Virus record (IMG/VR): IMGVR_UViG_3300042485_001429
Coordinates: 1 to 59,729 of that record
Source: a virus
Lineage: Duplodnaviria; Caudoviricetes
Strand: one strand, 5' to 3'
DNA length: 59,729 bases
Positions 11,977-49,532 of the stretch are shown piece by piece (position 1 is the stretch's first letter; each line of letters begins with the position of its first letter). The notes beneath the pieces were generated by a model. It made no database searches, was not told the DNA's origin, and worked only from the letters and a program-made list of their open reading frames with translations. The translations under genes and the position numbers were made by a program.

Positions 11977-14900
11977 ATGAACGCTAAATATAAAAACCTA
12001 TACCAAGAATTAGTATCAAGAGATCTAACTAGCCTTGATGAGGATTTGTTTTATAATGAATACTCAACAAATGACCAAAAATTTGGAGAACTATACTCGT
12101 ATTTAGAGTCTGAGGGACTGACTAGTCTAGATCCAGAGACGTTTAAGTCCGAGTATCTTACTGACACTCCCGTTGAAAAAAAAAATCCAGACGTTACGGA
12201 ATTACCCTTGGAGACTGGTTCATCGGAGCGATTTACGGACCAAACGACTGAAGACCCATCAAGGGATGCTTGGAATAGACCAAAAGGTGATAAATGGTTT
12301 GGGTTTAATCCAGATACAAAAAAATATACTGAAGGTCCAAATAAAGGTTTAACTGGTAGTGACGTATTTTCTAATTCAGGGGCTTATATTCTTGAAAGTA
12401 ATCCAGAAGTTTTATATAAAAGAAATGGACAACATTGGCTTAAACAAGTCGGTGGTAAATATGTTCCTCTAACAAAAGGAGACATTCAAGCTAGAGAAAA
12501 AATACTAAACGAGCAAGCTGTTAAGGCAAGTCAGTTTCAGATTGATTGGATTAAAAACAACCCAAAAGAAGTTAAAATAGAGTATCAAGACATACCTGAC
12601 GATAAAATGGAACAGAAGTTTCCAGGCATAACTAAGATAACAAAAGAGGAAACGAAAAGATGGCAGGAAGAGAATAAAAAAAAACCTGTTGACACTAGAA
12701 AACCTACCTCAGAAACAATTGAATTAGCAATTGTAGGGGAAAAAATTTATGATCTTCAAGAAGAGCAATCTAAAAAAGAATTTTACGAAAGTCCTGTAAC
12801 ATCTGAATCATTTACATATTGGCTAGACGCTACTGGAAAGCCAAGACAGGGCTTAGATCCAGTTAAAAGTCAACAAGCATTAGATTTTGCAAAGAGACTT
12901 ATAGGTGAACCTGAGCTGGCACAGCTATCAAAAATAGATAAACTAGGTAAAATAAACCTTAACGTCCCATCTGCTGATAAATTTTTAAACAAAGAATTTT
13001 ATAACTCAAATTTTAGTTTTGAGCAGGATGGTAATGAATTAATAATTAACTCATACCTTCCAGGAGCAAAAAATAATGAAGGAGATATTGAAAATACTAT
13101 ATCAATTGATCTGTCTGGTAAAAATTCAGGGGCTACAATAAAACAATTCTTAAGAGATAATTTATTTTACAAGGTAGATGTAGACAGACTTAATAAGGCT
13201 TCAGAAAATACGGAAAACTATATTGATTTTATACTTTCATCTAGCGATAAGCTAAAAATGACAGACGATAGAAAAAATAAAATTCGTGATTGGCAGCAAC
13301 AAGAATCTGCGGTAATCGAGGCGGATATTCAAAGAAATGACTTAAATAATCTAGATAAGGAAATTAAATTGTATGAAAGTGCAGTATTGTCATTTAATAA
13401 AAAAGTTGCGTCTGGAAAAATGACTCAACAAGAATTTGATAAAGAAAATGATAACATATCAAATCAATACAAAGGCATACTTAAAAAACAAGAAATATCA
13501 TCAGGTCTACTAGAAAGAACAAAAAGACTTGAAGAAGCACAAAATCTACTTGAAATAACCTATCCAATAGAAGCAAAGGGAAGTATTTTAGGATCACAAT
13601 TACGAACTTTTGTGCAAAGTGTTGTTGCAACTCCCTTAAAAACGGGATTAGATATTAGTTTAGCTGCTGGGAACCTTATGATGGGGGATGAAAAATTTGC
13701 CAAATTTATAGATGGAAATTACGATGTTAAAAAATCAAGGGGATTAACTGATGCTGAAATAGCGAATAGTGCACAGGCTAAAGTAAAAGAACTTAATATT
13801 GGATTAACTGATTTAGCTCTTACTCAGGTAACAGGGACTAATAAAGAATACTATCAAGATCCAAATAACAGTAAGATTTTTCAAGCACTAAATGCCGTTG
13901 TAGAAAGTGTTGGTACAGCAGTAAGTGGTGGTGGTTCAAAAGCTTTAACAACAGCTGCATTCTTCTCTTTGTCTTACAATGCGATGGAAGATCAAATGAG
14001 AGGACCAGACTTTGATCACTTAACTGAAAACGAAAAGAAATTAATATCAGTTCCATATGGTCTTGTTATAGGTCAAATGGAAAAATTTGGATTTAAGGTT
14101 GCTGCTGGTGCTGGAAAAAATCCGCTATTTAATAAATTTGCTAACTCTGTCATAACAACAGCATTTAAAGGTTTACCTAAAAACGCTGGATTAGTAGAGT
14201 TAAATTCAGCAATACAAAAAAATATAGGTGCATCAATAGCCAAGGGCTTGATTAAAGTTGTAGGTGGAGGTGTTTCTGAGGGTAGTGTTGAATTTGGACA
14301 ACAAATATTTGAGGGTGTTGAAAAGTTTGCAGTAAACGAAATATTAAAGAACGATAACTTTAACCAGGAGTACTTTAAAGACGGTCAGGACCTAACAAAG
14401 GAAGGTGGATGGAAGACCTTAATAGACCAAGGATGGGATGCATTTAAGCTTGGTTTCTTGGCTGGTGGAATGACCACTGGTGGCAGCATGGTTAAAAATA
14501 ATATTGTAGATATAGGTTCTAATAATAAATTTGATATATATAAAAATCTTGTTTTAAATAAGGAGGCAAGAGAAGGATGGATAGCTAGTATACAAAAAGA
14601 AAAAGAGAATGGAACTATTTCATTTGAAGAAATGAACAAGAAGACGGACGAAATAAACAGATCATACTCTACACTAATAAAAATACCAGCTTCATTAACT
14701 ACACAGTCTCAAAGAGAAGCTTTTTCTTTACTACAAGAAAGAGAAAATATAGAAAACGAAATAAAAGATAAGGAACCTAATCTAGTAGTAAAGGAAACAA
14801 ATAGAATAAAAGAAATAAACGAAGCACTAAAAACAACATCAGAAAATGCCACTAAAGAAGACAACATCCAGCAACAAGAAGGTACAGCAGAAGGCGGTAT

Positions 14901-17900
14901 CAGCGAATATCAGGGAACTGGTGAAGGACAACCAGAAGTCGGGGTCAGCGAAGGGGGACAACGGGAAACCACGGTCAATGAAGCAGATAGTGGCGATAGC
15001 ACTGTCGCAAGCAAAGTACAGCAAGAAGAGCAAGTAGCAGCCTACAGAGCTGAAGAACAGGCTGAACTTATTAAGGCCATACCTAAAATAGAGAGCTACA
15101 AAGTAAATGGTGAGATAGATAAAACTCTCATGCCAAAAACTGTATTGGCTAAGTATAATAGTATATACAACAAGTATGACAACTTAATAAGTCCTCTATT
15201 AGAGCCTACAGCTGAAGTAGTAATCGATAAGCCTGTTATAACAACCAACACAACGGCTGAGGTAGAGAGAGTTAAATCTCTTACACCTGATTCAGAAGAC
15301 GGTGCCACATTCAATATTGACGGAACCAAGTACGAGGGTGTTGGTTTAGTTGTTCCAGTTGATAGCATGAACACTACAACAGAAGAATTGACTCCAGAAA
15401 TGGTAGCCGACTTTGTTGCAGAACGTCAAGAAATGATTGGTGATGCTGGTGTCGTTAAGGCTGGAATATATAAGTTTCCTAATAGCAATCAAGTATCAAT
15501 TGACCTTAGCGTTGTGGTTCCTGAAACATCAAGAGAACAAGCACTTGAGTTTGCAAGACTTGCTGGTCAGGAATCATTATTTGATCTAGCAACATTTGAA
15601 AATATTAAGACTGGAGCAACTGGTGAGAACCCTATGAGCTTTAGTCCAGAGCAGCACAGAGAAATATCTAAGGCGTTAAAGGAAGGAAAAATACCCAATG
15701 TATTTGGCACTACAGCTAAGACAACAAACAACTTACTAACAAAAGAAAACATTAAGGAAGTTGAAACAAAACAAACTACGCCTAAAAATAAGTTGATTGT
15801 GAAAGCCGCTAAAATGGTTTTAAATGCGATCCCTGGAGTTAAGATATACATGCACAACAATGGCCAAGAAATGGCTAGTGCTATTGAGGCATCAAAGAAA
15901 CAATTAACAAAAGAAGAAAAGACTGGGCTTACAGAATCAAGCGGTCTATATGTAGACGGTGATATTCATATTAACCTAGAGTCTGCAACTATTGGTACGG
16001 TGTATCATGAAGCATTTCATGCGTTGATTGAAAAAAACGGAATGAAGTCTGGGTCAATATTATTGATGGCAAAGGGCCTTAAAAATATTATATCTGACAA
16101 AGGTATTAAACAAAGATTAGATGATTTTGTATCTCAATACAATGAAGATGAAAAGGCAGAAGAATACATATCAGAGCTTGGTGGAATACTATCTGAGGCA
16201 GAGCAAGAATTAACTACAACAAAGCTACAGCAATTCAAAACATTGATAAATAATATCGCTAAGAAGCTAGGGTTGCCAGTTATATTTTCTGCATCAGCAA
16301 CTGCACAAGACGCTGCTGACTTTATTAATACCATGTCTAAGAAACTTAGGACTGGGGAAAATATACTTGCAGATGGATTTCAAACAAATATAATTTCTAA
16401 TAAAATAAAATCACAGATACCTGTAAAAGTAAATAAAAATCAAAAATTAACTTTTGTAAAGCAATCAGATATAATAGATATAAAATCTTTAGTTGACGAT
16501 ATTGTATCTAAAAATGAAACAGTATGGTTTTGGGTAGCTGACCAATTAGGTAGAGGAATTTATTTTGATAGTGTAATAGATGGAAATCATTACTTAGATG
16601 CTGGTCCATCATATGCACTTGATCCAGAAAATAGATCAAAAAACATAATATGGGCTAGTGGAGCAAATCCAAAAACTTTAAATAATAATATAGATCGTAG
16701 TGATTATATATTTATTATTAGTGGTTCACCACAGCTATCAAAGTTATTCAATAAAAAAGTATCTGGAATAGTAAGATCTAGAATAGAAGATAAAGTTGAT
16801 TTTAATGAATTTAAAAATAGTATACTAAATTCAAAGCCAACAAAACAAATTTTAAATATAATAAAGAAATATAATTCTTATGATGAATTGTTTAATGGTT
16901 CAGATAGGAAAGCTGTTTTAATTTCTATAAATGAACAAAAATCAAAGAACACTAAATTAAACAAAGTGTTAGAGTCATATGATGCATTTATAGATCTAAA
17001 CGAATTAAGAGATGGATTTTATAAAGAGAATGATTTTAAACTAGGCGATGTAATGCTAGTTTTAAAGCCAGAAAAAATAGGTGATAAATCAAACCATTCT
17101 ACATATGAAACTGATATCATTGGATCTGTAGTAGGTGTTCCAGATCTAGTTATTAATTCTTTTGATTTAATGACAGATGAAGTAAAGAATAAATATAAAA
17201 ATAATTTAGAGCGAGTACAACAACAACAGATAGTTGCTCCATATGGAATGGGTGTAAAAAATATATCCAAAATAAAATTCCGAAAGAATAAGACCGATAA
17301 ACTTACAGCACCAGTAGCTGGTAACAAGCTATTTAACGAGCCATTAAAACAGGCACTTGACATAGCAAAGTCGTACATGAAGTCAATAGGAATGGAATAC
17401 ACACCTGTTGAAAAGATAACAAAGCTAGACGAAGGCCTATCTAAAAGGATATCTGACGCTTACGATAAGATGAAAGATGATCCTACTGATCCTGAAGTAA
17501 AGGCCGCTTATGAGGCAATGGCTAAGGAGACCTTAGATCAGTATGACGCTATAACAGCAAAGGGATATAATCTAGAGATAAACAACAACGAGCCATACTC
17601 TTCTTCTGAGGACATGATAAATGATCTTAGAGACAACAATAGAATGAAGATATTCTCAACAGAGTCTGGATTTGGCGATACGCCAATTACTGAAAAACAA
17701 AGAGAAGAAAATATATTATTAAAAGACTCTGGTAGAAAGGACGCAAATGGAGAGACATTGCTAATAAATGATGTATTTAGATTTGTGCATGACTTCTTTG
17801 GTCACGCTAAACTAGGTAATAGTTTTGGTCCAATAGGAGAAGAAAATGCATGGAGAGTTCACTCTGAGATGTATTCACCAGAAGCTAAAAAAGCTATGAC

Positions 17901-20900
17901 ATCTGAAACAAGAGGTCAAAATAGTTTTGTTAATTTTAGTGGTGTTAATGACGCTGCGTTTAAGAAGAGAGACAAAGCAAGACAACTTCGTAAGGAAGGC
18001 AAGATAGATCAGGCCAACCAGATGGTTGGAGAGGTGTACGATGAGATGAAGTTTGCAGATCAAAAGATTGGTCTGTTGCCTAGCTTTGCAGTAGAAGAAG
18101 GAGCTCCATCTAAGATTAAGTTCCAGAAGACTCAACAAGAAACAAGGATGGACAGTGAGGCTGAAGCTATATTTAAAAAATCATTAGACCGTGGAGTAGC
18201 TTGGAATACCGCTATTCAGAATGTAATAGACTACATACAAATATCAAAGTGGTATGAAGATGCAAGCGACATAGACAGAGAGCAAAAAATAAGAGACTTT
18301 AGACAATCTAAAAAACAGAAACTAAAAAAGGCTCCATCTGTAGCTAAGATAATGGGAACACCTAAGCCAAGCACCGTAACAGTAACAGAAAAGACTGCAC
18401 TTAAAGATCAGATTAGACTTGAGGCAAGAGCTGCTAGGGAGGCTAAGGTTGACCTTAACCAAAAAAGAAAGTTGCTGTCAACTGCAATAAAGGGTCTAGT
18501 AAAACTTGGAAGATTAAATACAAAGCAAGCAGGAATAATAATTGCTAGGGTTGGATATGTAAACCTTGACAACCAAGTTATGGTTGATAGACTTGCAGAA
18601 TATGCTGCTAAGGTATTTGAAAAGGCAGACTATCAAGATACATTGTCTAGAGCTTTTTCATTTAGAAAAGAAATTAGAAAATTACTTAAGGGAGACATAC
18701 AGGCCGAGGTAGTTGGTATGGCCAAGAAGTTTAGCAAGATAGACCCATCAATGGTAGATGATATCGAGAAATACCTAGACATGGCAGAAATTGTTAAGAA
18801 TGCAATTAAGCCGTCTAAAGTAAATAATAAAAAACTTGATGTAAATATGAGAGAGTCAATGAATATTGATTCAGTATCAGAATTTACAAATGATGCAATA
18901 GAAAATCAAGAAAGAATATTAAAAGAAGAACTACTTGCTGTGCACAGTGAATTAGTTGATGCTGGAGTAATAGATGATAAAATGTCGTTAAGCGAAATAG
19001 AATTAATTATAAACTCACTAAAAGAAAAAGAAGAAGACGCTAATTATAAGGCAGACATACTAACATTTTTATCAAAGAGAATAGACACAATGTCTGCAAT
19101 AATAAAAGACATTCTTACATATAAGATTAATCCAATGACTGGTGAAGAGGTAGATCTAACTGAGAAAAATATTGACCTTATCTCTAGGATGCTTAACATT
19201 GATATAAATAACGTGTCTATTAAAGAGGCAATATTTATTGCTGAGGCAATGGATAACTTTATAAACAATAACATAACAAGCTCTGTTGAGGCGGTAATAG
19301 AAAAACATGAGGGTGTAACTGAGTTAGAAAACTTAATAGCTGACAAGGTTGTCGCTAGTCCACTTAGAAAATACTTTAGTACTTATGCAGGACAACTTTT
19401 CTCTGAACAAGTTGCATCAATGCCAATACTATTTGAAAAACTATTTGTAGGTGCAAAGAAAGGACTTATGATAGCTAAAAAAATGGGTTGGACTGCATTA
19501 ATAAATGGAGTAAACAAAGCAGAAAAAATATTTAATACTACTGTTGATGTATACTTTAAGCAATATTCAAAAACAAAGCCAAATGGTAAAAGTTTCAACG
19601 ATGCTGAAAATGTTTATGAAAGAGGTATGCTTGCATTCTTAAGTAGAAATGTATCAGGAACTGTAACACAACAATCAGAAGAGCTTAAAAGAAGAGTAGA
19701 GGTACTAAAAGAAAGCGTTAAAAGTCTATTAGAAGGATCCAGTAAGGAGCAAAAAATGGGTGAACTATACCAAAAGGTATACGACAAGCTTAACATAGAG
19801 TCTGGAGATATTGATGTTATACGTGCTAACGTAGATAAAATTAATAGATCTGCTGTTGGTTGGTGGATAAATCAGTGGGGAACTACATATAATGACCTGT
19901 CAGACATAAGTCTTTCTGTTTATAATACAGTGCTTAGTAGTGATACTTCATACACCACAGACAGATATAAATTATTAGCTAAATCGACTTCAAAAGAAAT
20001 AATTGATCCTAAAACTGGGTCATTTGGTAGAGATATAGAAATTCTAGACATGAATAAGGCAGGAGTTATAATGCCGTCTACGAGACCATCTGCATCAGCA
20101 GTATCAAATGCAAGTAGATATATTAGCCTAGATTTTGATGTTAACAATACATCTGCATACAAAGGAGCACTTATTGATATAAATACAGCTGCTGCAATAA
20201 GAAAAATAGATGGTTTTATAAACTCAAAAAAATTAGCTAAATTAATTCCAATAGAAGAGGACAGAGAGATATTTACAGGAAGAATAAGAGACTACATACA
20301 GGCCGCTAAAAACAAGATGCCTGTACAATCTGACAAAATGAGGTTACTCGATCAGCTCACTAATTTCCTTGGTGGAATTGGTGTAGCTAAAGCATTAGGT
20401 GGTATTGATCAAGTTGTAAAACAAACACTTCCAATTGCATTAAGTACAATTGTAAACTCTGGAAGATTTGATCTTGTTATGCCAGGATCAAGTGCAAGTG
20501 TATGGATCGATTCATTAGGGATGGCAATATCCAACCGTGGTCAAGAATCACAATCAACAATTGAATCAGTTGACAGAAGGTTAGAAAAAGCAGCTGGACT
20601 TATTGATAAATCAGCAAATGCTTTTGTAGACATACAGCAGTTTTGGTTAAAGTATTTTTTATCTAAGCCAGATGTATTCATCGCTAAGTCTTCATTTATT
20701 TCTTACTACAAGCAGTACCTATCAAATAACAATCAAAGTACAGATATTGATTGGGCTACACATAATGTCAATCAAGATGCGGCAGACTACGCAATGACAA
20801 TGGTAGACAGACAGCAAAATATATCTGATACTAAAATGGCTGGTAAAATATTCAGCTCTCAAAATTCTACAACAAAGATCATGAGAAAAATATTCTTACC

Positions 20901-21957
20901 TTTTGCATCATTCTCATTAAATCAAAAATCTAGAATGGTATCAGATATTAAGGTTCTAGGAATTAATAGTGGTGCATCAAAGCAGGACAAAATGATAGCT
21001 CTTAGATCTTTAGCATCTCTTCCATTTGAAATGGCGTTATATCAATCTATGAGTTTAGCTATACGTCTTGGATACCTTGCTATTGCAAAGGGAATAGTTG
21101 GAGCAATTGCAGATGACGATGATGAGGAAAAAGAAAAATTATTGGGCATGGAGGTATCTAAGGAGATGAAGAATGCAACAAAATATCCGTTAAGATCTAT
21201 GATTACAGATTTTCTTTCTCCAGCACCAGTGCTTGATAATTTAGTAGTTGGTGGAGCAAATGCTTTACTACGTCAATCAGAAGATAAGGAAATGATAGAT
21301 GATGCAGTATCCAAAAAGAATCTAATGCTTGAGGTTTTAGGAAAAGATAAAATGGATGAAGATCAAAAAGAAAAGTTTATTAAAAAATTTAAAAAAGATC
21401 ACGAGTATCAATTGTTTAATGATGAACAAAAATCATGGGGCACAATAGGTATTGGTACAGATTTGTATATAGAAATAATGGATAATGCAAAAACAGCGAC
21501 TACAGGAAAATATACTCAAGACTACATGGGAAATGAGTCAGAAAGATTCTTGCTTCCAAAAGATCAAGAGAACATTCAAAATGCCGTTATATTTGAAGCT
21601 TTGTTTGCATTAGGAATAGTTCCACGTGATGTCAATACCGTAACAAAGAACATAATAAAGTTATCAAAGAAGAACTCCTTAACAGAAAATCAATTTGAAA
21701 AATACAAGGCTGTTGGAAAAGAGACTGGTAGCAAGGTAACTGGATGGAAGATGGATCTGACTAAATCAAAATCAAAATTAGAGACAACAGTTTCCGAGAT
21801 TGAATGGATTGAAAAAAATGGAGGGTTAACTGAAAAGCAGGGCAAAGAGTATGTAAAACTTTCAGCAGCATTTGATGAGGTTTTATATAGAGATCTACAA
21901 AAAATTCAATCTGGAAAAACAGCTGATCAGATAATTAACTCTTACTCAAAAAAGTAG
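11977..21957 (+). CDS. Giant polyvalent virion/ejection protein
   Basis: 3326 aa; zincin HEAFH (16006-16020), HDFFGH module (17788-17805), long helical C-terminal region. Confidence 0.75.
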   Translation: MNAKYKNLYQELVSRDLTSLDEDLFYNEYSTNDQKFGELYSYLESEGLTSLDPETFKSEYLTDTPVEKKNPDVTELPLETGSSERFTDQTTEDPSRDAWNRPKGDKWFGFNPDTKKYTEGPNKGLTGSDVFSNSGAYILESNPEVLYKRNGQHWLKQVGGKYVPLTKGDIQAREKILNEQAVKASQFQIDWIKNNPKEVKIEYQDIPDDKMEQKFPGITKITKEETKRWQEENKKKPVDTRKPTSETIELAIVGEKIYDLQEEQSKKEFYESPVTSESFTYWLDATGKPRQGLDPVKSQQALDFAKRLIGEPELAQLSKIDKLGKINLNVPSADKFLNKEFYNSNFSFEQDGNELIINSYLPGAKNNEGDIENTISIDLSGKNSGATIKQFLRDNLFYKVDVDRLNKASENTENYIDFILSSSDKLKMTDDRKNKIRDWQQQESAVIEADIQRNDLNNLDKEIKLYESAVLSFNKKVASGKMTQQEFDKENDNISNQYKGILKKQEISSGLLERTKRLEEAQNLLEITYPIEAKGSILGSQLRTFVQSVVATPLKTGLDISLAAGNLMMGDEKFAKFIDGNYDVKKSRGLTDAEIANSAQAKVKELNIGLTDLALTQVTGTNKEYYQDPNNSKIFQALNAVVESVGTAVSGGGSKALTTAAFFSLSYNAMEDQMRGPDFDHLTENEKKLISVPYGLVIGQMEKFGFKVAAGAGKNPLFNKFANSVITTAFKGLPKNAGLVELNSAIQKNIGASIAKGLIKVVGGGVSEGSVEFGQQIFEGVEKFAVNEILKNDNFNQEYFKDGQDLTKEGGWKTLIDQGWDAFKLGFLAGGMTTGGSMVKNNIVDIGSNNKFDIYKNLVLNKEAREGWIASIQKEKENGTISFEEMNKKTDEINRSYSTLIKIPASLTTQSQREAFSLLQERENIENEIKDKEPNLVVKETNRIKEINEALKTTSENATKEDNIQQQEGTAEGGISEYQGTGEGQPEVGVSEGGQRETTVNEADSGDSTVASKVQQEEQVAAYRAEEQAELIKAIPKIESYKVNGEIDKTLMPKTVLAKYNSIYNKYDNLISPLLEPTAEVVIDKPVITTNTTAEVERVKSLTPDSEDGATFNIDGTKYEGVGLVVPVDSMNTTTEELTPEMVADFVAERQEMIGDAGVVKAGIYKFPNSNQVSIDLSVVVPETSREQALEFARLAGQESLFDLATFENIKTGATGENPMSFSPEQHREISKALKEGKIPNVFGTTAKTTNNLLTKENIKEVETKQTTPKNKLIVKAAKMVLNAIPGVKIYMHNNGQEMASAIEASKKQLTKEEKTGLTESSGLYVDGDIHINLESATIGTVYHEAFHALIEKNGMKSGSILLMAKGLKNIISDKGIKQRLDDFVSQYNEDEKAEEYISELGGILSEAEQELTTTKLQQFKTLINNIAKKLGLPVIFSASATAQDAADFINTMSKKLRTGENILADGFQTNIISNKIKSQIPVKVNKNQKLTFVKQSDIIDIKSLVDDIVSKNETVWFWVADQLGRGIYFDSVIDGNHYLDAGPSYALDPENRSKNIIWASGANPKTLNNNIDRSDYIFIISGSPQLSKLFNKKVSGIVRSRIEDKVDFNEFKNSILNSKPTKQILNIIKKYNSYDELFNGSDRKAVLISINEQKSKNTKLNKVLESYDAFIDLNELRDGFYKENDFKLGDVMLVLKPEKIGDKSNHSTYETDIIGSVVGVPDLVINSFDLMTDEVKNKYKNNLERVQQQQIVAPYGMGVKNISKIKFRKNKTDKLTAPVAGNKLFNEPLKQALDIAKSYMKSIGMEYTPVEKITKLDEGLSKRISDAYDKMKDDPTDPEVKAAYEAMAKETLDQYDAITAKGYNLEINNNEPYSSSEDMINDLRDNNRMKIFSTESGFGDTPITEKQREENILLKDSGRKDANGETLLINDVFRFVHDFFGHAKLGNSFGPIGEENAWRVHSEMYSPEAKKAMTSETRGQNSFVNFSGVNDAAFKKRDKARQLRKEGKIDQANQMVGEVYDEMKFADQKIGLLPSFAVEEGAPSKIKFQKTQQETRMDSEAEAIFKKSLDRGVAWNTAIQNVIDYIQISKWYEDASDIDREQKIRDFRQSKKQKLKKAPSVAKIMGTPKPSTVTVTEKTALKDQIRLEARAAREAKVDLNQKRKLLSTAIKGLVKLGRLNTKQAGIIIARVGYVNLDNQVMVDRLAEYAAKVFEKADYQDTLSRAFSFRKEIRKLLKGDIQAEVVGMAKKFSKIDPSMVDDIEKYLDMAEIVKNAIKPSKVNNKKLDVNMRESMNIDSVSEFTNDAIENQERILKEELLAVHSELVDAGVIDDKMSLSEIELIINSLKEKEEDANYKADILTFLSKRIDTMSAIIKDILTYKINPMTGEEVDLTEKNIDLISRMLNIDINNVSIKEAIFIAEAMDNFINNNITSSVEAVIEKHEGVTELENLIADKVVASPLRKYFSTYAGQLFSEQVASMPILFEKLFVGAKKGLMIAKKMGWTALINGVNKAEKIFNTTVDVYFKQYSKTKPNGKSFNDAENVYERGMLAFLSRNVSGTVTQQSEELKRRVEVLKESVKSLLEGSSKEQKMGELYQKVYDKLNIESGDIDVIRANVDKINRSAVGWWINQWGTTYNDLSDISLSVYNTVLSSDTSYTTDRYKLLAKSTSKEIIDPKTGSFGRDIEILDMNKAGVIMPSTRPSASAVSNASRYISLDFDVNNTSAYKGALIDINTAAAIRKIDGFINSKKLAKLIPIEEDREIFTGRIRDYIQAAKNKMPVQSDKMRLLDQLTNFLGGIGVAKALGGIDQVVKQTLPIALSTIVNSGRFDLVMPGSSASVWIDSLGMAISNRGQESQSTIESVDRRLEKAAGLIDKSANAFVDIQQFWLKYFLSKPDVFIAKSSFISYYKQYLSNNNQSTDIDWATHNVNQDAADYAMTMVDRQQNISDTKMAGKIFSSQNSTTKIMRKIFLPFASFSLNQKSRMVSDIKVLGINSGASKQDKMIALRSLASLPFEMALYQSMSLAIRLGYLAIAKGIVGAIADDDDEEKEKLLGMEVSKEMKNATKYPLRSMITDFLSPAPVLDNLVVGGANALLRQSEDKEMIDDAVSKKNLMLEVLGKDKMDEDQKEKFIKKFKKDHEYQLFNDEQKSWGTIGIGTDLYIEIMDNAKTATTGKYTQDYMGNESERFLLPKDQENIQNAVIFEALFALGIVPRDVNTVTKNIIKLSKKNSLTENQFEKYKAVGKETGSKVTGWKMDLTKSKSKLETTVSEIEWIEKNGGLTEKQGKEYVKLSAAFDEVLYRDLQKIQSGKTADQIINSYSKK
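12176..12251 (+). other. Candidate -1 frameshift/slippage site (A10) with short -1 frame extension
   Basis: G AAAAAAAAAA T at 12175-12186; -1 frame reads KSRRYGITLGDWFIGAIYGPND* (TGA 12249-12251). Confidence 0.4.
14846..15037 (+). CDS. Small basic protein nested in the +1 frame of the giant gene
   Basis: MPLKK...SANIRELVK...KQIVAIALSQAK resembles a widespread stand-alone small phage protein; A-rich start context. Confidence 0.7.
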   Translation: MPLKKTTSSNKKVQQKAVSANIRELVKDNQKSGSAKGDNGKPRSMKQIVAIALSQAKYSKKSK

Positions 21958-36292: not shown

Positions 36293-36305
36293 AAGTTCTA
36301 GGTTT

Positions 36306-36572
36306 TTAAAGTTCATACTCGTTTCCATTATCGTCATAGTACACGTCCTCGTCAATCTCTTCCCACTCAGTGTAGTAGTAAAACTCCTCCTCGTAGTAAT
36401 GGTCTAACATTAATTTGTCTGATTTGAAATTTAGGTCTTCTTCTTCAGCAACACCTTTCAACCATTTGATTAAGTGTTCTTTCTCAGAGAAGTATAGGTC
36501 ACCTGCTCCAACAACATATCCATCGTTCATACCACGTCCCGTAGCATCACATTTTCTTGCATATCTTTCCAT
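36306..36572 (-). CDS. Acidic early protein
   Basis: 88 aa; ARKCDATGRGMNDGY and Glu/Tyr-rich tail. Confidence 0.65.
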   Translation of the reverse strand: MERYARKCDATGRGMNDGYVVGAGDLYFSEKEHLIKWLKGVAEEEDLNFKSDKLMLDHYYEEEFYYYTEWEEIDEDVYYDDNGNEYEL

Positions 36573-36585
36573 AAGTTCTAAGGTT

Positions 36586-36852
36586 TTATTGAGAACATAA
36601 TTCCCACGTGTTCATTGTTAATAATTTTTTCTTTGTTAATCCTAATGACTTCAAAATAAATTTTGCAAGCCTCATGTTTACCTTTGGGTCATCAAGTTCA
36701 CCGCTTCCTATTTGTTGTACGATATAGGATGGAGACATACCCAATACCCTTGAGCAAAACTTTACGTCCTGCCCAAGGTAGAATTCTTTTTCGTCAACAC
36801 ACAACGTCCAGTTGTGGTCGAAGCCGTAGCTACTTGTGATTTGTACTTTCAT
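36586..36852 (-). CDS. Early hypothetical protein (MKVQITSS...)
   Basis: ATG at 36852 follows the stop of the upstream small ORF. Confidence 0.6.
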   Translation of the reverse strand: MKVQITSSYGFDHNWTLCVDEKEFYLGQDVKFCSRVLGMSPSYIVQQIGSGELDDPKVNMRLAKFILKSLGLTKKKLLTMNTWELCSQ

Positions 36853-36856
36853 TTTG

Positions 36857-36970
36857 TTAAATGTATAGGTGAGGTACACCCTCAAGAATAATTATTACGA
36901 CTAATCTAATTAATCCAAATCCTAAGGTACCACCTAGTGCGATAGCCCAAATACTCATTAATTTTTCCAT
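36857..36970 (-). CDS. 37-aa membrane peptide immediately downstream of the hammerhead
   Basis: MEKLMSIWAIALGGTLGFGLIRLVVIIILEGVPHLYI*. Confidence 0.6.
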   Translation of the reverse strand: MEKLMSIWAIALGGTLGFGLIRLVVIIILEGVPHLYI

Positions 36971-36987
36971 TTTGTAAGGTTTTAATT

Positions 36988-37045
36988 GGTTAAGACAGCA
37001 CCTCGTGAGTGCTGTTTCGGATATTGAATCCATCGTCAGTTAACC
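36988..37045 (-). ncRNA. Type I hammerhead ribozyme
   Basis: Minus strand: GGUUAA CUGACGA U GGAU-ucaau-AUCC GAAA CAGCAC-ucacgag-GUGCUG UC UUAACC; three perfect stems, intact core, GUC triplet. Confidence 0.93.
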
Positions 37046-37231
37046 TTTGTTAAACATTTCTTTTTTGAATCGAATCAAGTGACCCTCCTCGTACTTTAAT
37101 AGGTCGGTTAGCTTGTCTCTATCCACGTCTATTATCCCGTGTATAGGATGCTTGATATCGTTGATGCCGACAAAGTTGATGTTTCTTTTTAATTGCTCAG
37201 TGATTGTTGTTGTTCTGATTGTTCCGTTCAT
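37040..37231 (-). CDS. Early hypothetical protein
   Basis: 63 aa; its stop codon lies in hammerhead stem I. Confidence 0.6.
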   Translation of the reverse strand: MNGTIRTTTITEQLKRNINFVGINDIKHPIHGIIDVDRDKLTDLLKYEEGHLIRFKKEMFNKG

Positions 37232-37254
37232 GTTTTCTAGGGTTTAGGTTGTTG

Positions 37255-37497
37255 TTATCCGATTTGTAATTGACCATCAACGAATGATGGTTGGTATTCT
37301 CCATGTTCCGCAGTCATGTCATCTGTCTCGAAGAACGTGCTGTAACTAGCTAACTTCAATTCGTGACATGCTACTATAACCTCTGCCTCGTCACCAAAAA
37401 TTGGATGCTCGAAGAACTCTATTTCTTGACCTTGGTCGTTAATCATTTTGCCGTAGCTTGTTGGATTTTTATCCATTAATTTTTGATAGTTTAACAT
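37255..37497 (-). CDS. Early hypothetical protein
   Basis: 80 aa; FFEHPIFGD. Confidence 0.65.
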   Translation of the reverse strand: MLNYQKLMDKNPTSYGKMINDQGQEIEFFEHPIFGDEAEVIVACHELKLASYSTFFETDDMTAEHGEYQPSFVDGQLQIG

Positions 37498-37521
37498 AAT
37501 TTCTAGGGTTTAAATTGTTAG

Positions 37522-37665
37522 TTAATACCACACCTCGTCTAAGGTGTAGCTGTACTTCTTACTTACATAACTGATGAATTTGTTCATATGGTTTTCATCG
37601 TTAAATTTACGGCACATAAATACATACTTCCCGTATGCATTCATAAATTGAATTCTTGCAATCAT
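37522..37665 (-). CDS. Small early protein (47 aa)
   Basis: Manual translation MIARIQFMNAYGK... Confidence 0.55.
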   Translation of the reverse strand: MIARIQFMNAYGKYVFMCRKFNDENHMNKFISYVSKKYSYTLDEVWY

Positions 37666-37677
37666 ATTCTTACTTGT

Positions 37678-37788
37678 TTATTTCCATCCCCTTACTTTCA
37701 TTCGGGATGTTTTGATTAATACTTTGTTTAAGAAGTAGCCGATTATTTCATAGCCGTTCTCGATTCTGATGATTCTACTTTCAATCAT
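37678..37788 (-). CDS. First early ORF (36 aa)
   Basis: MIESRIIRIENGYE..., preceded by AAAACCTAGAACCC. Confidence 0.5.
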   Translation of the reverse strand: MIESRIIRIENGYEIIGYFLNKVLIKTSRMKVRGWK

Positions 37789-37812: not shown

Positions 37813-38248
37813 GGTGCAGTATGTATCGCTCATATTAATTAGTCACTCTAACTGCACCTTATTGTTGTTACTTGCACCACATTTATATAGATGGAATCGA
37901 ACCACCACAAGTAGGTTATTATTTGTTTTTTTTGCCTCAAGCCTTTGGTTATGCTATTTAGCGATAGTGTTACGCACTACCTCTGTCTATTTTCGGTGTC
38001 TAACCTCCTGCTTGACCGCAGTCCCGATACTAATACCCTCGAGGGGGGAGTGACCTGTTGTAATATGGATTGCCGATTCCATTTTCAATCTATTAAGTAA
38101 GCAATCATGTTCGTTCTGAGTAGACTAATATTCCGTGCCCTTAATACTTTCATCTAGTCTATGTCATAATGACTGCTAGAACTAAGAGTCTTGTTGTTCA
38201 TCCCCATGTGTGTCGCTTGTTAATCAATCAAGGCTCGTTTGCCTCTCT
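37813..38248 (-). ncRNA. Candidate structured ncRNA / long 5' leader
   Basis: No credible minus-strand ORF; many nested inverted repeats plus a GGTTCGATTCC T-loop hairpin. Confidence 0.45.
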
Positions 38249-38254
38249 AAATAC

Positions 38255-38283
38255 TATAACGCAAGACTATTTAAAATGTTACA
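38255..38283 (-). promoter_or_regulatory. ECF-sigma-type promoter for the early arm
   Basis: TGTAAC-N16-CGTTATA on the minus strand. Confidence 0.55.
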
Positions 38284-38499
38284 ATAAAGTTGCATTTTTT
38301 TTCATTTTTTTTCATTTTCTTTAGATAAACCCACCAATATATGCTCGTAAAGTATTGATTGATTGATAGTTAATTAGTTTATTTTTTTTTCATTAAATTA
38401 TTAATATTTGTTGTTTTTTATGTTGGATTGGGTCAGCCTCCTCAGTCAGGAAGTCTAGCTGTCAAAATTTCCGTGCAGATTTTCGGGTCAGATGATCAG

Positions 38500-38741
38500 C
38501 CGACCGACCGACCGATTTGCTATTCTATTTAACATAATGTAAATTATACAGCAGATAGATTTGGTAGCTGATTAATATATATTGCTGTCGGCTGATGTGT
38601 CGTGTAGCTGACGTGCCGACCTATCGCACAATAGGTAGCTAAGGCGGTAGGGGGTAGCAATAGGTAGCTAGGGTGTGAGGGGGGTTGCCTATGAAAAGCT
38701 AGAATATCCTAACCAAAAATCCCAAATGCAGACCCCCCCCC
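38500..38741. repeat. GC-rich repeat cluster (candidate terminus/packaging region)
   Basis: (CCGA)4 38500-38515; CAATAGGTAGCTA at 38629 and 38658; G-runs; C9 at 38733-38741. Confidence 0.6.
38527..38554 (-). other. dif-like XerC/XerD recombination site
   Basis: Minus strand CTGCTGTATAA-TTTACA-TTATGTTAAAT; XerD arm identical to E. coli dif, 11-6-11 geometry. Confidence 0.8.
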
Positions 38742-38817
38742 TTGATTTTTAAATCGTTTTCCTTTTGGTCAGCTCATCGTCAAACGTATATATTACCCAC
38801 AAGTTCTAAATATTTAG

Positions 38818-38825
38818 TATATTTG
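38818..38825 (+). promoter_or_regulatory. Bacteroidota -7 promoter (TTAGTATATTTGCA class)
   Basis: The same 14-mer recurs around 39516, 40531 and 51373. Confidence 0.7.
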
Positions 38826-38851
38826 CAATATAATATAAAAAGCAAAAAGTT

Positions 38852-39272: not shown

Positions 39273-39515
39273 ATGAATAATAATCGTTTAACTCGAAATA
39301 CAACAGGTAAGCCATTAGACAAGCAGAACTATAGCTCAATACCATTTAAAAACAAAGACATTGATCGCTTTAAAAAAGTAATGGTCAACTGGCCTGATAA
39401 CATCTCAAACCCTAAAAACGCAGAGTTCGTTAACGAGGTAGCATTTAATAATGGAATTAATGTTAATAAGGTTACTCAAAAAATGTTTAATGATAGATAT
39501 CTTAAAAAAGATTAG
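39273..39515 (+). CDS. Small basic protein
   Basis: Shares Y.SIPFKNKDID with the 40236 ORF. Confidence 0.6.
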   Translation: MNNNRLTRNTTGKPLDKQNYSSIPFKNKDIDRFKKVMVNWPDNISNPKNAEFVNEVAFNNGINVNKVTQKMFNDRYLKKD

Positions 39516-39523
39516 TATATTTG
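39516..39523 (+). promoter_or_regulatory. Bacteroidota -7 promoter element
   Basis: TATATTTG within TTAGTATATTTGCA. Confidence 0.7.
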
Positions 39524-39552
39524 CAGTGTATATATAAACAAAAAAAAACAAA

Positions 39553-40167
39553 ATGGCAACTAGAACAACAACAAAAACAACAAAGCCTACCCCAAATGCA
39601 AACAAGGTTAGTGTCAACACAAACAAGGTTAAGGTCAACACAAATAAGGTAGACATAAACGCTGCAAAAGTTAGAGCTAATGCTGCAAAAGTAGCGGCTA
39701 ACGCTGCAAAAGTTAAAGCTAATGCTAAAGCAGCAGCAGTAGTTACTCCAGCTAAGATTACTAAAACAACAGTAGTTACCCCTAAAAAGTTGGCTCCTAA
39801 AGTGACTCCTGTAAAAGCAAAAGCGGATACTATGCCAGTTAGAAATACTACTGCTAAAGATTATGAAATAATGACTAAGGCAAATCTGGACCGTAGGGGG
39901 CCCCTGTATGTTGGCAGTGGTCAATATGGAACTATGGCACAACGAGACTCATCTATAAATTCCATAAGTAAATTTAATACTGGAGCGAAACTAGGTTCTC
40001 GTAAAGTCACTCAATCCTCTTACTTTCCAGGTGACGAGAGACTAGCAAAAGCAGCTAAACAAAGTAAGCTTAAATATGTTCCACCAAAAAATACAAACTC
40101 TGGACCGTTACGAAATAGACCTCAAACAAAAACATCACAGGAGGAGCTATATAAGAGGTATCAATAA
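39553..40167 (+). CDS. Lys/Ala-rich basic (histone-like) protein with RTT leader
   Basis: Heptad repeats NTNKVxV and NAAKVxA. Confidence 0.65.
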   Translation: MATRTTTKTTKPTPNANKVSVNTNKVKVNTNKVDINAAKVRANAAKVAANAAKVKANAKAAAVVTPAKITKTTVVTPKKLAPKVTPVKAKADTMPVRNTTAKDYEIMTKANLDRRGPLYVGSGQYGTMAQRDSSINSISKFNTGAKLGSRKVTQSSYFPGDERLAKAAKQSKLKYVPPKNTNSGPLRNRPQTKTSQEELYKRYQ

Positions 40168-40711: not shown

Positions 40712-42280
40712 ATGATAGTAAAAGAGATTCACTTTGGCGATGACGGCCAAAAAAAACTAAAGTCTGGCATAAAAAAGATTGCTGGAGCGGTCAAGAGCAC
40801 GATGGGTGCAAGAGGCAGGACGGTACTAATAGAGTCCGAGAATCACATTGGCGGTATAACTGTCACAAAGGACGGTGTAACGGTCGCTAGGTCGATCAAT
40901 CTTTACGATCCCACTGAAAATTTAGCTGTAATGATGATGCGACAGGCAGCTGATCGCACTGCTGTTGTTGCTGGAGACGGAACCACAACGGCAATTGTGT
41001 TGGCAGAGTCTATAATTGACAACGCTGACAATATTATCGACAGTGCCGACAATATTACGGAGGTGATACGTGAGATATCTGAGATAACGACTAAAATTTG
41101 CTCAAGGTTGAGCAAGATGTCCAAGAAATTAAGTGGAAAGAAGCTACTTGATGTTGCCACCATCTCTGCAAATAACGACAGGGAGGTTGGAAAGATGATA
41201 TCTGACACATTTGGCAAGGTAAACGTTGTTACTGTCGAGAACAGTCAGACTCCAAGCACACACGTAGAGATAATCAGTGGAATGAAGATCGATCGGGGGT
41301 TCTCTTCTAAGTACTTCATCACTGATCAAAAGAAGCAGGAGTGTGTACTTGACAATCCTTACGTATTAATCACGGACCACGAGATATCCAACATACTAAA
41401 CATAGAGAAGGTTATCGCTCATGTTATATCATCTAATAAGTCGTTACTAATTATAGGTCAGCTTAGTGCATCTGCACTAAACACGTTAAACTTGAACGTT
41501 GCACAGGGCAAGATAAAGGCCTGCAACATAATACCTCCATCGTTTGGATACAGGAGCAAGGACCTGTTGTTTGACTTGTCTGTCTCGTTGGGTGGAACAT
41601 ACTTCTCTGAGGACACTGGTGACGATCTATCTGTTATTGAGGTTGAGGACCTTGGTCGTGCTTCTAGGGTTATTGTCAACAAGGACATGACCTTATTTAT
41701 GCCGTTACCAGCTATGGCTGATGCGATAGACAAGAACATTCAGGTGTTAAAGGAATCAATTGCTGAGACTACAGACGTTAACGAGGTAAACTTTATCAAT
41801 GAGAGAATCGCAAACATGTCTGGTGGAATTGGCATCATATATGTTGGTGCACTAAGCGACATTGAGCAAAAAGAAAAGAAGGACCGTATTGACGATGCTG
41901 TGTGTGCCGTAAAAGCTGCACTAGAGGACGGAATACTTCCTGGTGGTGGAATCGCATTGATAGATGCATTTGACCTTGAGTTTCCAGATGTAAGTACAAC
42001 TGCTGAAAAGATAATGTTAAACGCTGTTGCGTCTCCATTCAAGCAGATAGTATTAAACTCTGGCAAGAATCCTGAATTAATTTTATCTGAAATGCCAATC
42101 GGTAGAAATATCGGGTATGACGTGAAGAACGAGTGCTACGGTGACATGATCGGTATGGGCATTATTGACCCAACGAAGGTGACAAGAAATGCATTGATGA
42201 ATGCTGTGTCTGTTGCAACCACAATAATGAGTACTGACGCAATAATAACAAACATAAGAGACTATGAAGGTTCTAAATAG
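40712..42280 (+). CDS. groEL: Chaperonin GroEL
   Basis: VTKDGVTVA, AGDGTTTA, GILPGGG, GIIDPTKV. Confidence 0.95.
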   Translation: MIVKEIHFGDDGQKKLKSGIKKIAGAVKSTMGARGRTVLIESENHIGGITVTKDGVTVARSINLYDPTENLAVMMMRQAADRTAVVAGDGTTTAIVLAESIIDNADNIIDSADNITEVIREISEITTKICSRLSKMSKKLSGKKLLDVATISANNDREVGKMISDTFGKVNVVTVENSQTPSTHVEIISGMKIDRGFSSKYFITDQKKQECVLDNPYVLITDHEISNILNIEKVIAHVISSNKSLLIIGQLSASALNTLNLNVAQGKIKACNIIPPSFGYRSKDLLFDLSVSLGGTYFSEDTGDDLSVIEVEDLGRASRVIVNKDMTLFMPLPAMADAIDKNIQVLKESIAETTDVNEVNFINERIANMSGGIGIIYVGALSDIEQKEKKDRIDDAVCAVKAALEDGILPGGGIALIDAFDLEFPDVSTTAEKIMLNAVASPFKQIVLNSGKNPELILSEMPIGRNIGYDVKNECYGDMIGMGIIDPTKVTRNALMNAVSVATTIMSTDAIITNIRDYEGSK

Positions 42281-46097: not shown

Positions 46098-49000
46098 ATG
46101 CAAATAAGTATAGGTATATCTGTAAAGGGAGCACAAACATCAGGTGCATCAGGTGCACCTGTTAATACTGTAATACCTGTAATCTCAGGAACTACTACAA
46201 TAAGCAGTGTTCTTACATCAACAACAGGAACTTGGACTAACTCACCTACTAGTTATGCATACCAATGGAGAAGAAATGGATCGCCAATAGCAAGTGCCAC
46301 AGCCTCTACTTATACATTAGTTGCTAATGATTCAGCAGCAGCCATAACTTGCACAGTAACGGCTATAAATGCTTCGGGTAGTAGTGCACAGACATCCAAT
46401 ACAATTACAGCAGATACCTATTCACCTGTACTTACTTCTGCACCTGTAATATCAGGATCTACTGCTTTAGGAGGTGTGTTATCATCAACAACAGGTACTT
46501 GGACAGGAATACCTACGATTACTTATGCATACCAATGGAGAAGGGGTGCAACAGATATACCAAGTGCTACATCTTCTACCTACACTTTAGTAGTAGCAGA
46601 TTCTGCACAAAACATAACTTGCAGAGTAACTGCAACGAATTCAGCAGGATCAAATAATGTACTATCTAATACAATTACTGCACAAACCTATACAGCACCT
46701 TCTAATGTAGGTGCACCTGTAATTAGTGGTACAACTACTTTAGGTAGCACATTAACATCAACAACAGGGACTTTTACAGGCAATCCAACACCTACTTATG
46801 CATACCAATGGAAGCGAGGGGCTACTAACATAGGCACTAATTCATCAACTTATGTTTTAGTTTCAGCAGACTCAGCGGCAGCCATAACTTGTGTTGTTAC
46901 TGCTACGAATGCATTGGGAAGTTCAAGTGCAACGTCTAATACAATTACAGCAGATACTTACGCAGCACCTGTAAATTCGTCACCACCTTTAATTAGTGGT
47001 ACAACTACAATAGGTAGTCTTTTGACATCTACTTTAGGTGGTTGGCTTAACTTACCTACTAGTTATGCCTTCCAATGGAAAAGAAATACAATTGATATAC
47101 CAAGTGCCACAACATCTACTTATACATTAGTTCAAGCAGACTCGGCAAGTGCAATTACTTGTGTAGTTACTGCTACTAATGCTTTTGGCTCAACACCATC
47201 AACATCTAACACACTTACTACACCAACATATGCTACTGCATTTACATCAACGTGGGCTGTAACCGCAGGTGAAACTATAACCTTACCATATGAGGTTGCA
47301 GGTACATACTCAGGTACTATTGATTGGGGTGACAGCACGACAAGTGTAAATAGTTATGCTAACAGAACGCACACTTACGCAACAGCAGGTACTTACACTA
47401 TTTCAATCACAGGAGTAACTACAGGCTTTAGATTTAACAATACAGGAAGTAAAGCTAACATCAGCACCATTACAAATTGGGGTACTTTAAGATTAGGGAA
47501 TAGTGGCAATTATTTCCATGGTTGTTCAATCTTAACTTTAACTACAGTTGTAGGAACACTAGACTTGACAGGAACAACGGATTTTACTAATATGTTTAAT
47601 AGTTGTAGTTCACTTACAACTGTTAACGGTATTAATTCTTGGAATACATCAGCAGTTACAAGTATTGATAACATGTTTGCAAGTTGCGGTAACTTTAACC
47701 AAGCATTAACATTTAACACAGCATCAGTTACGAGCATGCAAGGTATGTTTATTGATTGCATAAACTTTAATTCTTCATTAACATTTACTACAGGAGCAGT
47801 TACTGATATGTCAACTATGTTTAACGGTGCAACAGCATTTGATGGTTTACTAACATTTACAAGTACAGCATCAGTTACAAGTATGCAAGCTATGTTTTTT
47901 AATTGTCCTAACTTTAATAAAGCATTGTCTTTTAACACAGTAGCAGTTACTAATATGTCTTTTATGTTTGGAGGAGCTTCTGCATTCAATCAAGACATAA
48001 GTTCTTGGAATACAGTAGCAGTTACTAATATGTCTTTTATGTTTTTTGGAGCTTCTGCATTTAATCAAAACATAGGTTCTTGGGACACAGCATCGGTTAC
48101 AAGTATGGCTCAAATGTTTTTTGGAGCTTCTGTATTTAATCAAGACATAGGTTCTTGGGACACAGTGGCAGTTACAGATATGAGTAATATGTTTAATGGT
48201 GCTTCTGCATTCAATCAAGACATAGGTTCTTGGAGCGTGGTAAATGTTACAAACTTTACAAACTTTATGGCAAGTAAAACAAAAGTAACATTCTCTGCCG
48301 CTAATTTATCTGCTATTTATAATGGTTGGAGTGCAAGTGGAGTGTCCCCAAGCATTGCTATAAGTTTTGGTACTGCTGAATACACAGCAGCAGGAGCAGC
48401 AGGAAAAGCAGTATTAGTAGCAGCACCAAATAATTGGACAATAACAGACGGAGGGCAGGAACCTACTGCATTCACATCAACGTGGCTTGTAACAGCAGGG
48501 GAAACTATTACGTTGCCTTATGAGGTTACAGGTACATATTCAGGAACGATAGATTGGGGAGATTCAAGCACATCTACTAATAGCTATGCAAATAGAACAC
48601 ATACCTATGTAGGTGCGGGTACTTACACTATTTCAATCACAGGTGTAACTACAGGCTTCAGATTTAACAATACAGGTAGTAAACTTAATATCAGAACTAT
48701 TACAAATTGGGGTACTTTAAAATTAGGGAATAGTGGAAGTTATTTTTATGGTTGTTCAAATTTAACTTTAACTACAGTTGCAGGAACACTAGACTTAACA
48801 GGCACAAACGATTTTATTAATATGTTTAATAGTTGTAGTTCACTTACAACTGTTAATGGAATTAATTCTTGGAACACAGGAGCAGTTACAAATATGCTTG
48901 GTATGTTTCAAAATTGCAGTAACTTTAACCAAGCATTATCATTTAACACAGCATCAGTACAAAATATGCAAAGTATGTTTAATAATGATGTAAACTTTAA

Positions 49001-49532
49001 TTCTTCATTAACATTTAATACAGGTTTAGTAAATAATATGAGTTTTCTGTTTTTTGGGTGTTCTCAACTTAATACTGCACCAACATTTACAAGTACAGCA
49101 GCAGTTACGAACATGCAAAGTATGTTTAGAGCCTGTATTAACTTTAACAAACCATTGACACTTAACACATCTTCAGTTAATTTTATGACGAATATGTTTA
49201 ACGGTGCAACAGCATTTAATCAAAATATAGGTACTTGGAACACAGTAGCAGTTACGAGCATGCAAGGTATGTTTAACGGTGCAACAGCATTTAATCAAAA
49301 CATAGGTTCTTGGAATGTGGCTAATGTTACAAACTTTACAGACTTTATGGTTACTAAAACCCCTGCAACTTTCTCTACTACCAACTTAGATGCAATATAT
49401 AATGGATGGGTAACAGTTCAATCAAGTAGAACAATAACATTTGGAACAGCAAAATATTCAGCAGCAGGAGTTGCAGGAAGAAATTATTTAACAACAACAA
49501 AATTATGGACAATAACAGATGGAGGGCTTTAA
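46098..49532 (+). CDS. Head fibre/adhesin: 4 Ig-like repeats plus 2x (PKD-like + BspA/DUF285 repeats)
   Basis: P.ISG......LTST.G.W....YAYQW repeats; IDWGD; WNT..VT.M..MF..ASAFNQ.I 25-aa repeats. Confidence 0.8.

Follow-up and report, generated by a model that had tools for sequence, protein, structure and literature searches.

A type I hammerhead ribozyme motif between co-directional genes of an uncultured freshwater phage and the stop codon-ribozyme-leader layout of its relatives

Perreault et al. described in 2011 type I hammerhead ribozymes that flank genes of phages and prophages, and proposed that they cut long transcripts into single-gene mRNAs (PMC3088659). Cleavage is reported there for three tandem arrangements, and the 5′ end of a halovirus transcript was mapped near a hammerhead located 13 nt from a start codon (PMC3088659). 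Subsequent reviews treat the role of phage hammerheads as still open and repeat the cistron-separator role as unproven (PMC6765202; PMC6155905). Tertiary contacts between stem I and stem II are described as general in natural hammerheads (PMC2632901; PMC3088659). The element analysed here adds a member to this known class of gene-flanking phage hammerheads.

The locus lies in an IMG/VR virus record that encodes phage proteins. The record is 59,729 bases long and complete (99% by CheckV), and the whole of it is referred to as the window. Read directly, minus-strand positions 37045-36988 form a complete type I hammerhead in which all core bases are present: C3 U4 G5 A6 N7 G8 A9, G12 A13 A14, the pair A15.1-U16.1 and an H17 that is not G, as listed in the Methods of PMC3088659. 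The sole deviation from the strict consensus is a U inserted after A9. The core-adjacent pairs 1.1-2.1, 10.1-11.1 and 15.1-16.1 are A-U, G-C and A-U, all standard. Both ends of the element lie in stem I, and loops close stems II and III, which is the type I topology. Its orientation is sense, between co-directional phage ORFs, as in the sense criterion of Perreault et al. 2011. The features, all on the minus strand, are as follows.

36986..37046, minus strand: hammerhead unit including the flanking unpaired A's; 67.5 bits to the family model R1, whose seed includes the window.
37046 (5′ side) and 36987-36986 (AA, 3′ side), minus strand: unpaired A's flanking stem I, 99% conserved on each side among 148 family members.
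37040..37045, minus strand: 5′ strand of stem I, GGUUAA, which pairs with 36993-36988 over 6 bp and includes the TAA at 37042-37040.
37033..37039, minus strand: catalytic core C3-A9, CUGACGA, by direct reading.
37032, minus strand: extra U between A9 and G10.1, by direct reading.
37019..37031, minus strand: stem II, 4 bp (37031-37028 with 37022-37019), of which 3 of 4 pairs covary.
37027-37023, minus strand: loop II, 5 nt, UCAAU, with loop positions 1, 3 and 5 nearly invariant in the family.
37016..37018, minus strand: core G12 A13 A14 (GAA), by direct reading.
36995..37015, minus strand: stem III, 8 bp including A15.1-U16.1 (37015-37008 with 37002-36995); 4 of the 6 counted pairs covary.
37007-37003, minus strand: loop III, 5 nt, by direct reading and fold.
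36994, minus strand: C17, with predicted cleavage 3′ of C17, between 36994 and 36993, from its position in the consensus.
36988..36993, minus strand: 3′ strand of stem I and predicted 5′-OH end of the downstream RNA, from direct reading and fold.
36971..36993, minus strand: A-rich leader of the predicted 3′ product, 23 nt, predicted to be unpaired in the released product.
37040..37231, minus strand: upstream ORF, 63 aa, with homologues of 68-97% identity in 20 IMG/VR loci and no PHROG match.
36857..36970, minus strand: downstream hydrophobic ORF, 37 aa, with ATG at 36970; conserved in the related loci L009 and L010, no PHROG match.

The original prediction, made from the sequence of this locus, had described a complete sense-strand type I hammerhead with the core CUGACGA/GAAA, an extra U and a GUC triplet; all of these elements were found, the hammerhead is conserved in relatives, and the consensus places the predicted cut at the same position, 36994/36993. 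Its account of the flanking genes also holds, since the TAA that ends the 63-aa ORF sits inside the 5′ strand of stem I and the predicted 3′ product begins 23 nt before the ATG of the 37-aa ORF. This downstream ORF had been called a membrane peptide; the ORF itself is present at 36970-36857, and the word 'membrane' reflects a judgement by eye of its hydrophobic run. A longer ORF of 58 aa with an ATG at 37033 was rejected, as its start lies inside stem II and relatives with another stem II lack the ATG.

Folded alone, the 58 nt adopt exactly this three-way junction as their minimum free energy (MFE) structure (-16.6 kcal/mol, z -2.64). A type I descriptor that allows 0 or 1 extra base after A9, and demands at least 4 bp in stem I and at least 3 bp in each of stems II and III, has one match in the window. 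In dinucleotide shuffles, a loose match to the motif arose in 15 of 1000 sequences, and stems as long as those observed arose in none of 1000. The hammerhead motif is not a chance occurrence. In a 241-nt context, stem III is all that the MFE fold keeps of the hammerhead, and the ribozyme's 5′ half is paired to the downstream ORF; the competitor pairing joins 36900-36925 with 37020-37042 (minus strand) and involves the coding sequence of the 37-aa ORF. This competitor is not conserved, because the close relative L009 has a different stem II and the same downstream sequence. Co-transcriptional folding would favour the local hammerhead over the long-range competitor.

The original prediction had suggested Infernal with Rfam models as a check, and this check was negative although the ribozyme motif is real. 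At the gathering score, Rfam returned no hammerhead match in the whole window and 0 hammerhead matches in 10 related loci with many copies; relaxing the threshold to E ≤ 10 for 36900-37150 yielded no hammerhead family. In E-value mode L009, which lacks the extra U, gave 28.9 bits to RAGATH-1-hammerhead (RF03152; gathering score 56.3) and 21.2 bits to Hammerhead_3 (RF00008; gathering score 48.5), the latter through a mis-threaded alignment that breaks 5 of its 7 outer pairs. R1 is a covariance model built from the alignment of the 69 family members described below. Its next best hit in the window after the 67.5-bit site scores 16.1 bits and has a broken core, and no second hammerhead copy was found in the window with this model. 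The Rfam miss is a false negative that we take to mark a limit of the Rfam models rather than of the element.

A pattern composed of the window's stem I and core matched at least 119 IMG/VR stretches, with up to 5 copies within 1.7 kb of one contig. The same GGUUAA-type pattern, applied to one genome each of 185,579 species, matched 7 stretches (L248-L254), which include Pedobacter, Paraflavitalea, Fructobacillus, Halalkalibacter and several MAGs; the GGUUAA subfamily is therefore found mainly in viral contigs. Covariation was assessed in 69 distinct members, chosen for similar length from 139 distinct sequences, in which stem I, A15.1-U16.1 and the next C-G pair are fixed by the search pattern and carry no weight. 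In this set, 98.6% of pair cells are standard, as against 24-41% when the 3′ partners are slid, and 207 cells have changed on both sides. None of 500 shuffles reached the observed covariation score.

N7 varies in the family and the remaining core bases are fixed, with H17 being C in 162 of 181 members and A in the other 19. A base is inserted after A9 in 36 of the 181 members and is U in 33 of these. Judged from its distribution among the sequences, the extra U appears to be a recurrent, tolerated variant.

The idea that stem I is invariant across phages as GGUUAA/UUAACC was rejected as an artefact of the search pattern. With a second pattern, which constrained only the core and the usual shape of stem II and its loop and left stem I free, 146 non-redundant matches were obtained; 145 of them fold as complete type I hammerheads, with many covarying stem I sequences. 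Stem I thus covaries across this wider family, and only 6 of its 108 newly fetched loci have the GGUUAA form. What stays constant is its length, which is exactly 6 bp in 175 of 181 members of the first set and in 143 of 145 of the stem-I-free set. In the latter set, an unpaired A lies 5′ of stem I in 144 of 145 members and 3′ of it in all 145. Fast cleavage at cellular Mg2+ needs a tertiary contact between stem I and stem II. The fixed length of stem I, its unpaired flanks and the conserved loop II are what such a contact would require; the window has all three of these features, which are indirect evidence for a putative contact.

The ribozyme lies within a leftward block of genes that runs from ~39345 down to 21942 and begins with many small ORFs of no assigned function. 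Next come an exonuclease-like gene (32920-32156), a gene for a primase-like protein whose N-terminal domain is BT4734-like (28089-25765), and one for an SNF2-type helicase (25488-24256). When 10 neighbouring small ORFs were compared with PHROGs, two families of unknown function and one exonuclease were returned. This gene order, with small ORFs upstream of replication genes, makes the 'early operon' of the original prediction plausible; a sigma-70 promoter scan around the element lent it no support, with 11 found against 11.3 expected in shuffles. Terminators around the element were likewise at shuffle level (2 found, 2.1 expected). A stretch of ~750 nt at 38100-38850 lacks a long ORF; it contains T-rich repeats and two direct copies of a 26-nt repeat (38629-38683). 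Two copies of a 19-nt motif, at 38814-38832 and 39512-39530, precede rightward genes. The repeats in 38100-38850 and 39345-39553 may be promoter or origin elements.

The rightward blocks encode a protein with a crAss muzzle-like N-terminus (1023-5081, plus strand), a weak P22-like portal, a GroEL/Cpn60-like chaperonin (40712-42280, plus strand; E 3.8e-51) and a 1144-aa protein with seven DUF285 repeats (46098-49532, plus strand; E 4.8e-133). A 3326-aa ORF at 11977-21957 (plus strand) has no Pfam match and no PDB sequence match; given its crAss muzzle-like neighbour, our guess is a giant virion protein, for example a packaged RNA polymerase. The window comes from an uncultured freshwater phage with crAss-like traits. 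The crAss muzzle-like domain, the BT4734-like domain and the A-rich leaders poor in Shine-Dalgarno (SD) motifs are hints of a possible Bacteroidota host; the 7 genome matches of the ribozyme pattern, however, comprise Fructobacillus, Halalkalibacter and several MAGs besides Pedobacter and Paraflavitalea.

Nine RNA runs contain 5-14% of the sampled words. Four RNA runs were compared as Logan contigs, which derive from mosaic relatives, do not reveal RNA ends and leave uncovered stretches without meaning. One RNA-library contig (X1 record 4, ~7% divergent) bridges the site over 36956-37231. This contig could be DNA carry-over or uncut RNA of a relative, and it gives no support for complete cleavage.

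Self-cleavage of hammerheads depends on Mg2+ and takes place 3′ of H17, here C17, leaving a 2′,3′-cyclic phosphate on the upstream RNA and a 5′-OH on the downstream RNA. From the observed motif, its conservation and covariation, and the order of stop codon, ribozyme, leader and ATG, we infer cleavage and a benefit to the phage, and from established hammerhead chemistry the nature of the ends. The element is probably an active type I hammerhead that acts within the leftward polycistronic transcript as a cistron separator, or insulator. Once transcribed, the RNA would fold into the 6-bp stem I, the 4-bp stem II with its conserved loop and the 8-bp stem III, and would cleave itself after C36994. 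The upstream RNA would retain the stop codon and the ribozyme body, and would finish in two hairpins and a 2′,3′-cyclic phosphate. The downstream RNA would begin with a 5′-OH and the six bases of the 3′ strand of stem I, so that an unstructured, A-rich leader of 23 nt would precede the 37-aa ORF. It is because of the type I topology that the ribozyme body and the stop codon stay on the upstream message, and translation could therefore terminate normally there, ahead of the two hairpins. The stability and translation of the neighbouring small genes would be uncoupled, and the downstream gene would receive a fixed leader whatever the upstream sequence. Self-processing into a downstream message with a 5′-OH, as first proposed for this locus, would follow from hammerhead chemistry and fits the layout of the family.

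That layout was analysed in 148 non-redundant members of the GGUUAA subfamily, the window included, and consists of a stop codon, the ribozyme, a short A-rich leader and an ATG. An ATG-initiated ORF follows a leader of 19-24 nt in 109 of the 148 members, and in 3 members no such ORF lies within 120 nt. The leaders are A-rich and G-poor: 92% have A at position -12 and 74% have it at -3, and just 19 of 133 contain an SD-like motif. The ORFs that follow them are short (median 75 aa).

These leaders bring up a different purpose for cleavage, namely that a short 5′-OH leader loads ribosomes better, especially in hosts without Shine-Dalgarno pairing. We regard this as possible, though somewhat doubtful. 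Besides the narrow range of leader lengths, their composition and the scarcity of SD-like motifs, the predicted unpaired state of the leader is in its favour, as is the report that self-cleavage makes translation possible in RNA viruses of fungi and plants (PMC13725137). That precedent is eukaryotic, however. Leader length is also loose in the wider family, where it is 17-26 nt in only 42 of 108 loci. Moreover, stem I would lie at the far edge of the ribosome footprint, so that initiation may be just as efficient on the uncut RNA.

The junction was also compared among related loci. A search with the upstream 63-aa protein recovered the 20 IMG/VR loci, and a hammerhead directly follows the 63-aa gene in 13 of them (L009-L012, L015, L016, L018 and L022-L027). 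The ribozyme is absent from the junction in the remaining 7 (L013, L014, L017, L019-L021 and L028), and is therefore dispensable there. Several of the 13 loci duplicate each other, leaving 7 distinct versions, including the window's own version, which is identical in L010. Among these relatives, stem II takes the form of three different helices, one always with the extra U and the other two without it, and stem III that of two helices related by compensating changes. Position N7 varies among C, A and U, and every other core base is fixed. No match to 36300-37700 was returned when the phage record collection was searched at the DNA level. On the contig of one relative, L082:250-282 (minus strand) matches the DUF805b RNA (RF02914) at 38.9 bits (gathering score 35.6), and the window has no such match.

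In L009 and L010, a second hammerhead with its leader directly follows the 37-aa ORF and precedes the next gene (alignment columns ~207-277), so that the 37-aa ORF is flanked by two ribozymes in these loci. The second copy in L009 has A at position 17. In the window this stretch of ~70 nt is absent at 36853-36862 (minus strand), and a short direct repeat borders the gap. Between the window (37019-37032) and L009 (3200-3213), nearly identical flanks enclose a stem-loop II that differs at 6 of 13 positions and by the extra U. The pattern of differences suggests a replaced patch, that is, a possible exchange between ribozyme copies rather than stepwise change.

Another reading is that the ribozyme and its leader are a selfish or neutral cassette, spread and lost by illegitimate or short-homology recombination, which marks mosaic joints and brings little benefit to expression. 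Presence and absence at one junction among close relatives, the repeat-bounded absence of the second copy, the stem-loop II patch as the sole difference between the window and L009, the up to 5 copies in 1.7 kb of one contig, and the at least five different genes that follow the ribozyme at this junction all fit such a history. Junctions without the ribozyme are equally mosaic, however, and the catalytic bases and tertiary-contact features are strictly conserved over hundreds of copies, which points to selection on cleavage itself. We consider this reading improbable.

The upstream stop codon of the 148 members falls in the ribozyme or at most 13 nt before it in 121. The UAA of stem I serves as this stop in 45 members and the core UGA in 26; a further 14 have a UAG whose last base is the first G of stem I, and in 36 the stop lies 5-13 nt before that G. 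In 19 members the stop is 24-147 nt away, and 8 have no upstream ORF of at least 35 codons. In the wider family, 68 of 108 loci have a stop codon that borders on the ribozyme or reaches into it. The original prediction had called the processing translation-coupled, meaning that ribosomes terminating at the stem I stop would gate folding. The frequent overlap agrees with this, and stem I and the core would lie beneath a ribosome that terminates there. Tight gene packing predicts the same layout, however, and as genome compaction explains the position of the stop equally well, the analysis lends the coupling no support. Overlap is also not required, given the 27 members with a distant stop or no clear upstream ORF, and because cleavage is irreversible, ribosome occupancy can merely delay it. 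Coupling of this kind is quite unlikely.

It is most improbable that the element is an inactive relic or a purely structural element, its catalysis abolished by the extra U or by missing tertiary contacts: the inserted core base, the lack of an Rfam match and the competing fold in the long context would fit, but 33 of 181 members have the extra U in cores that are otherwise perfect, the ribozyme of L010 is identical, and covarying stems around 13 invariant core bases are not what a relic would show.

The cistron separator remains our preferred reading, and it can tentatively be extended beyond this locus. In the extended form, which we put forward with reservation, a portable cassette of stop codon, ribozyme and leader would serve as a natural genetic insulator in many uncultured phages. 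It would provide stops in two frames (the UAA of stem I and the UGA of the core), a protective ribozyme cap at the 3′ end of the upstream RNA, and the same bare 5′-OH leader of ~19-24 nt for SD-independent initiation, and its core segments would offer short homology for swapping genes or ribozyme parts. That the ribozyme has a special role in recombination is no more than a suggestion.

The general view of phage hammerheads is left unchanged by this case. It does bring out a family of at least 119 IMG/VR stretches that is missed by Rfam models, which gave 0 hammerhead matches in the window and the 10 relatives scanned, and an Rfam-negative outcome is accordingly no ground to dismiss such motifs in viral contigs. 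The strict and simple architecture of the family makes the ideas of insulation and of leader maturation directly testable. No description of the subfamily, or of its stop-ribozyme-leader layout, was found in the literature searched; the supplementary alignments of PMC3088659, which lay outside that search, may hold it.

Among known systems, the closest are the type I hammerheads of phages and prophages of Perreault et al. (PMC3088659), which have the same core, the same open-stem-I topology and an intergenic position between co-directional genes. Several copies can flank single small genes there, as in the relatives L009 and L010, and the same role was proposed. Examples named in PMC3088659 are prophages of Clostridium, Azorhizobium and Agrobacterium and phage PaP3, whereas the present element belongs to an uncultured freshwater phage. 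HHphage of the haloviruses HF1 and HF2 also lies in a presumed early polycistronic region, 13 nt before a start codon as compared with 23 nt here (PMC3088659). A 5′ end was mapped near its cut site. HHphage has a variant core with a requirement for high Mg2+, and an archaeal host (PMC3088659), in contrast to the canonical core, but for the inserted U, of the window.

The hammerheads in the 5′ UTRs of fungal RNA viruses are likewise of type I and lie just upstream of an ORF, and their self-cleavage is linked to translation initiation (PMC13725137). These systems have eukaryotic hosts, RNA genomes and cap-independent initiation, and such an effect is not known from bacteria.

RAGATH-1 (RF03152) resembles the element in its type I layout and its long stem III, but its extra 5′ hairpin does not pair in L009. 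Together with Hammerhead_3 (RF00008) it provides the best partial Rfam matches of L009, both far below gathering, and the window gives none. The (+) hammerhead of CChMVd is a type III viroid ribozyme that serves rolling-circle processing, unlike the type I element of the window. De la Pena and Flores reportedly found in 2001 that this ribozyme tolerates an inserted base between A9 and G10.1, and that U is favourable there. The synthetic insulator RiboJ resembles the proposed function, in that a self-cleaving hammerhead placed before a gene removes the upstream context and creates a fixed 5′ end (PMC6206723). RiboJ is engineered and is not a family to which the window element could belong. It leaves the ribozyme body on the downstream mRNA, whereas the type I element of the window would leave the body upstream and the leader bare.
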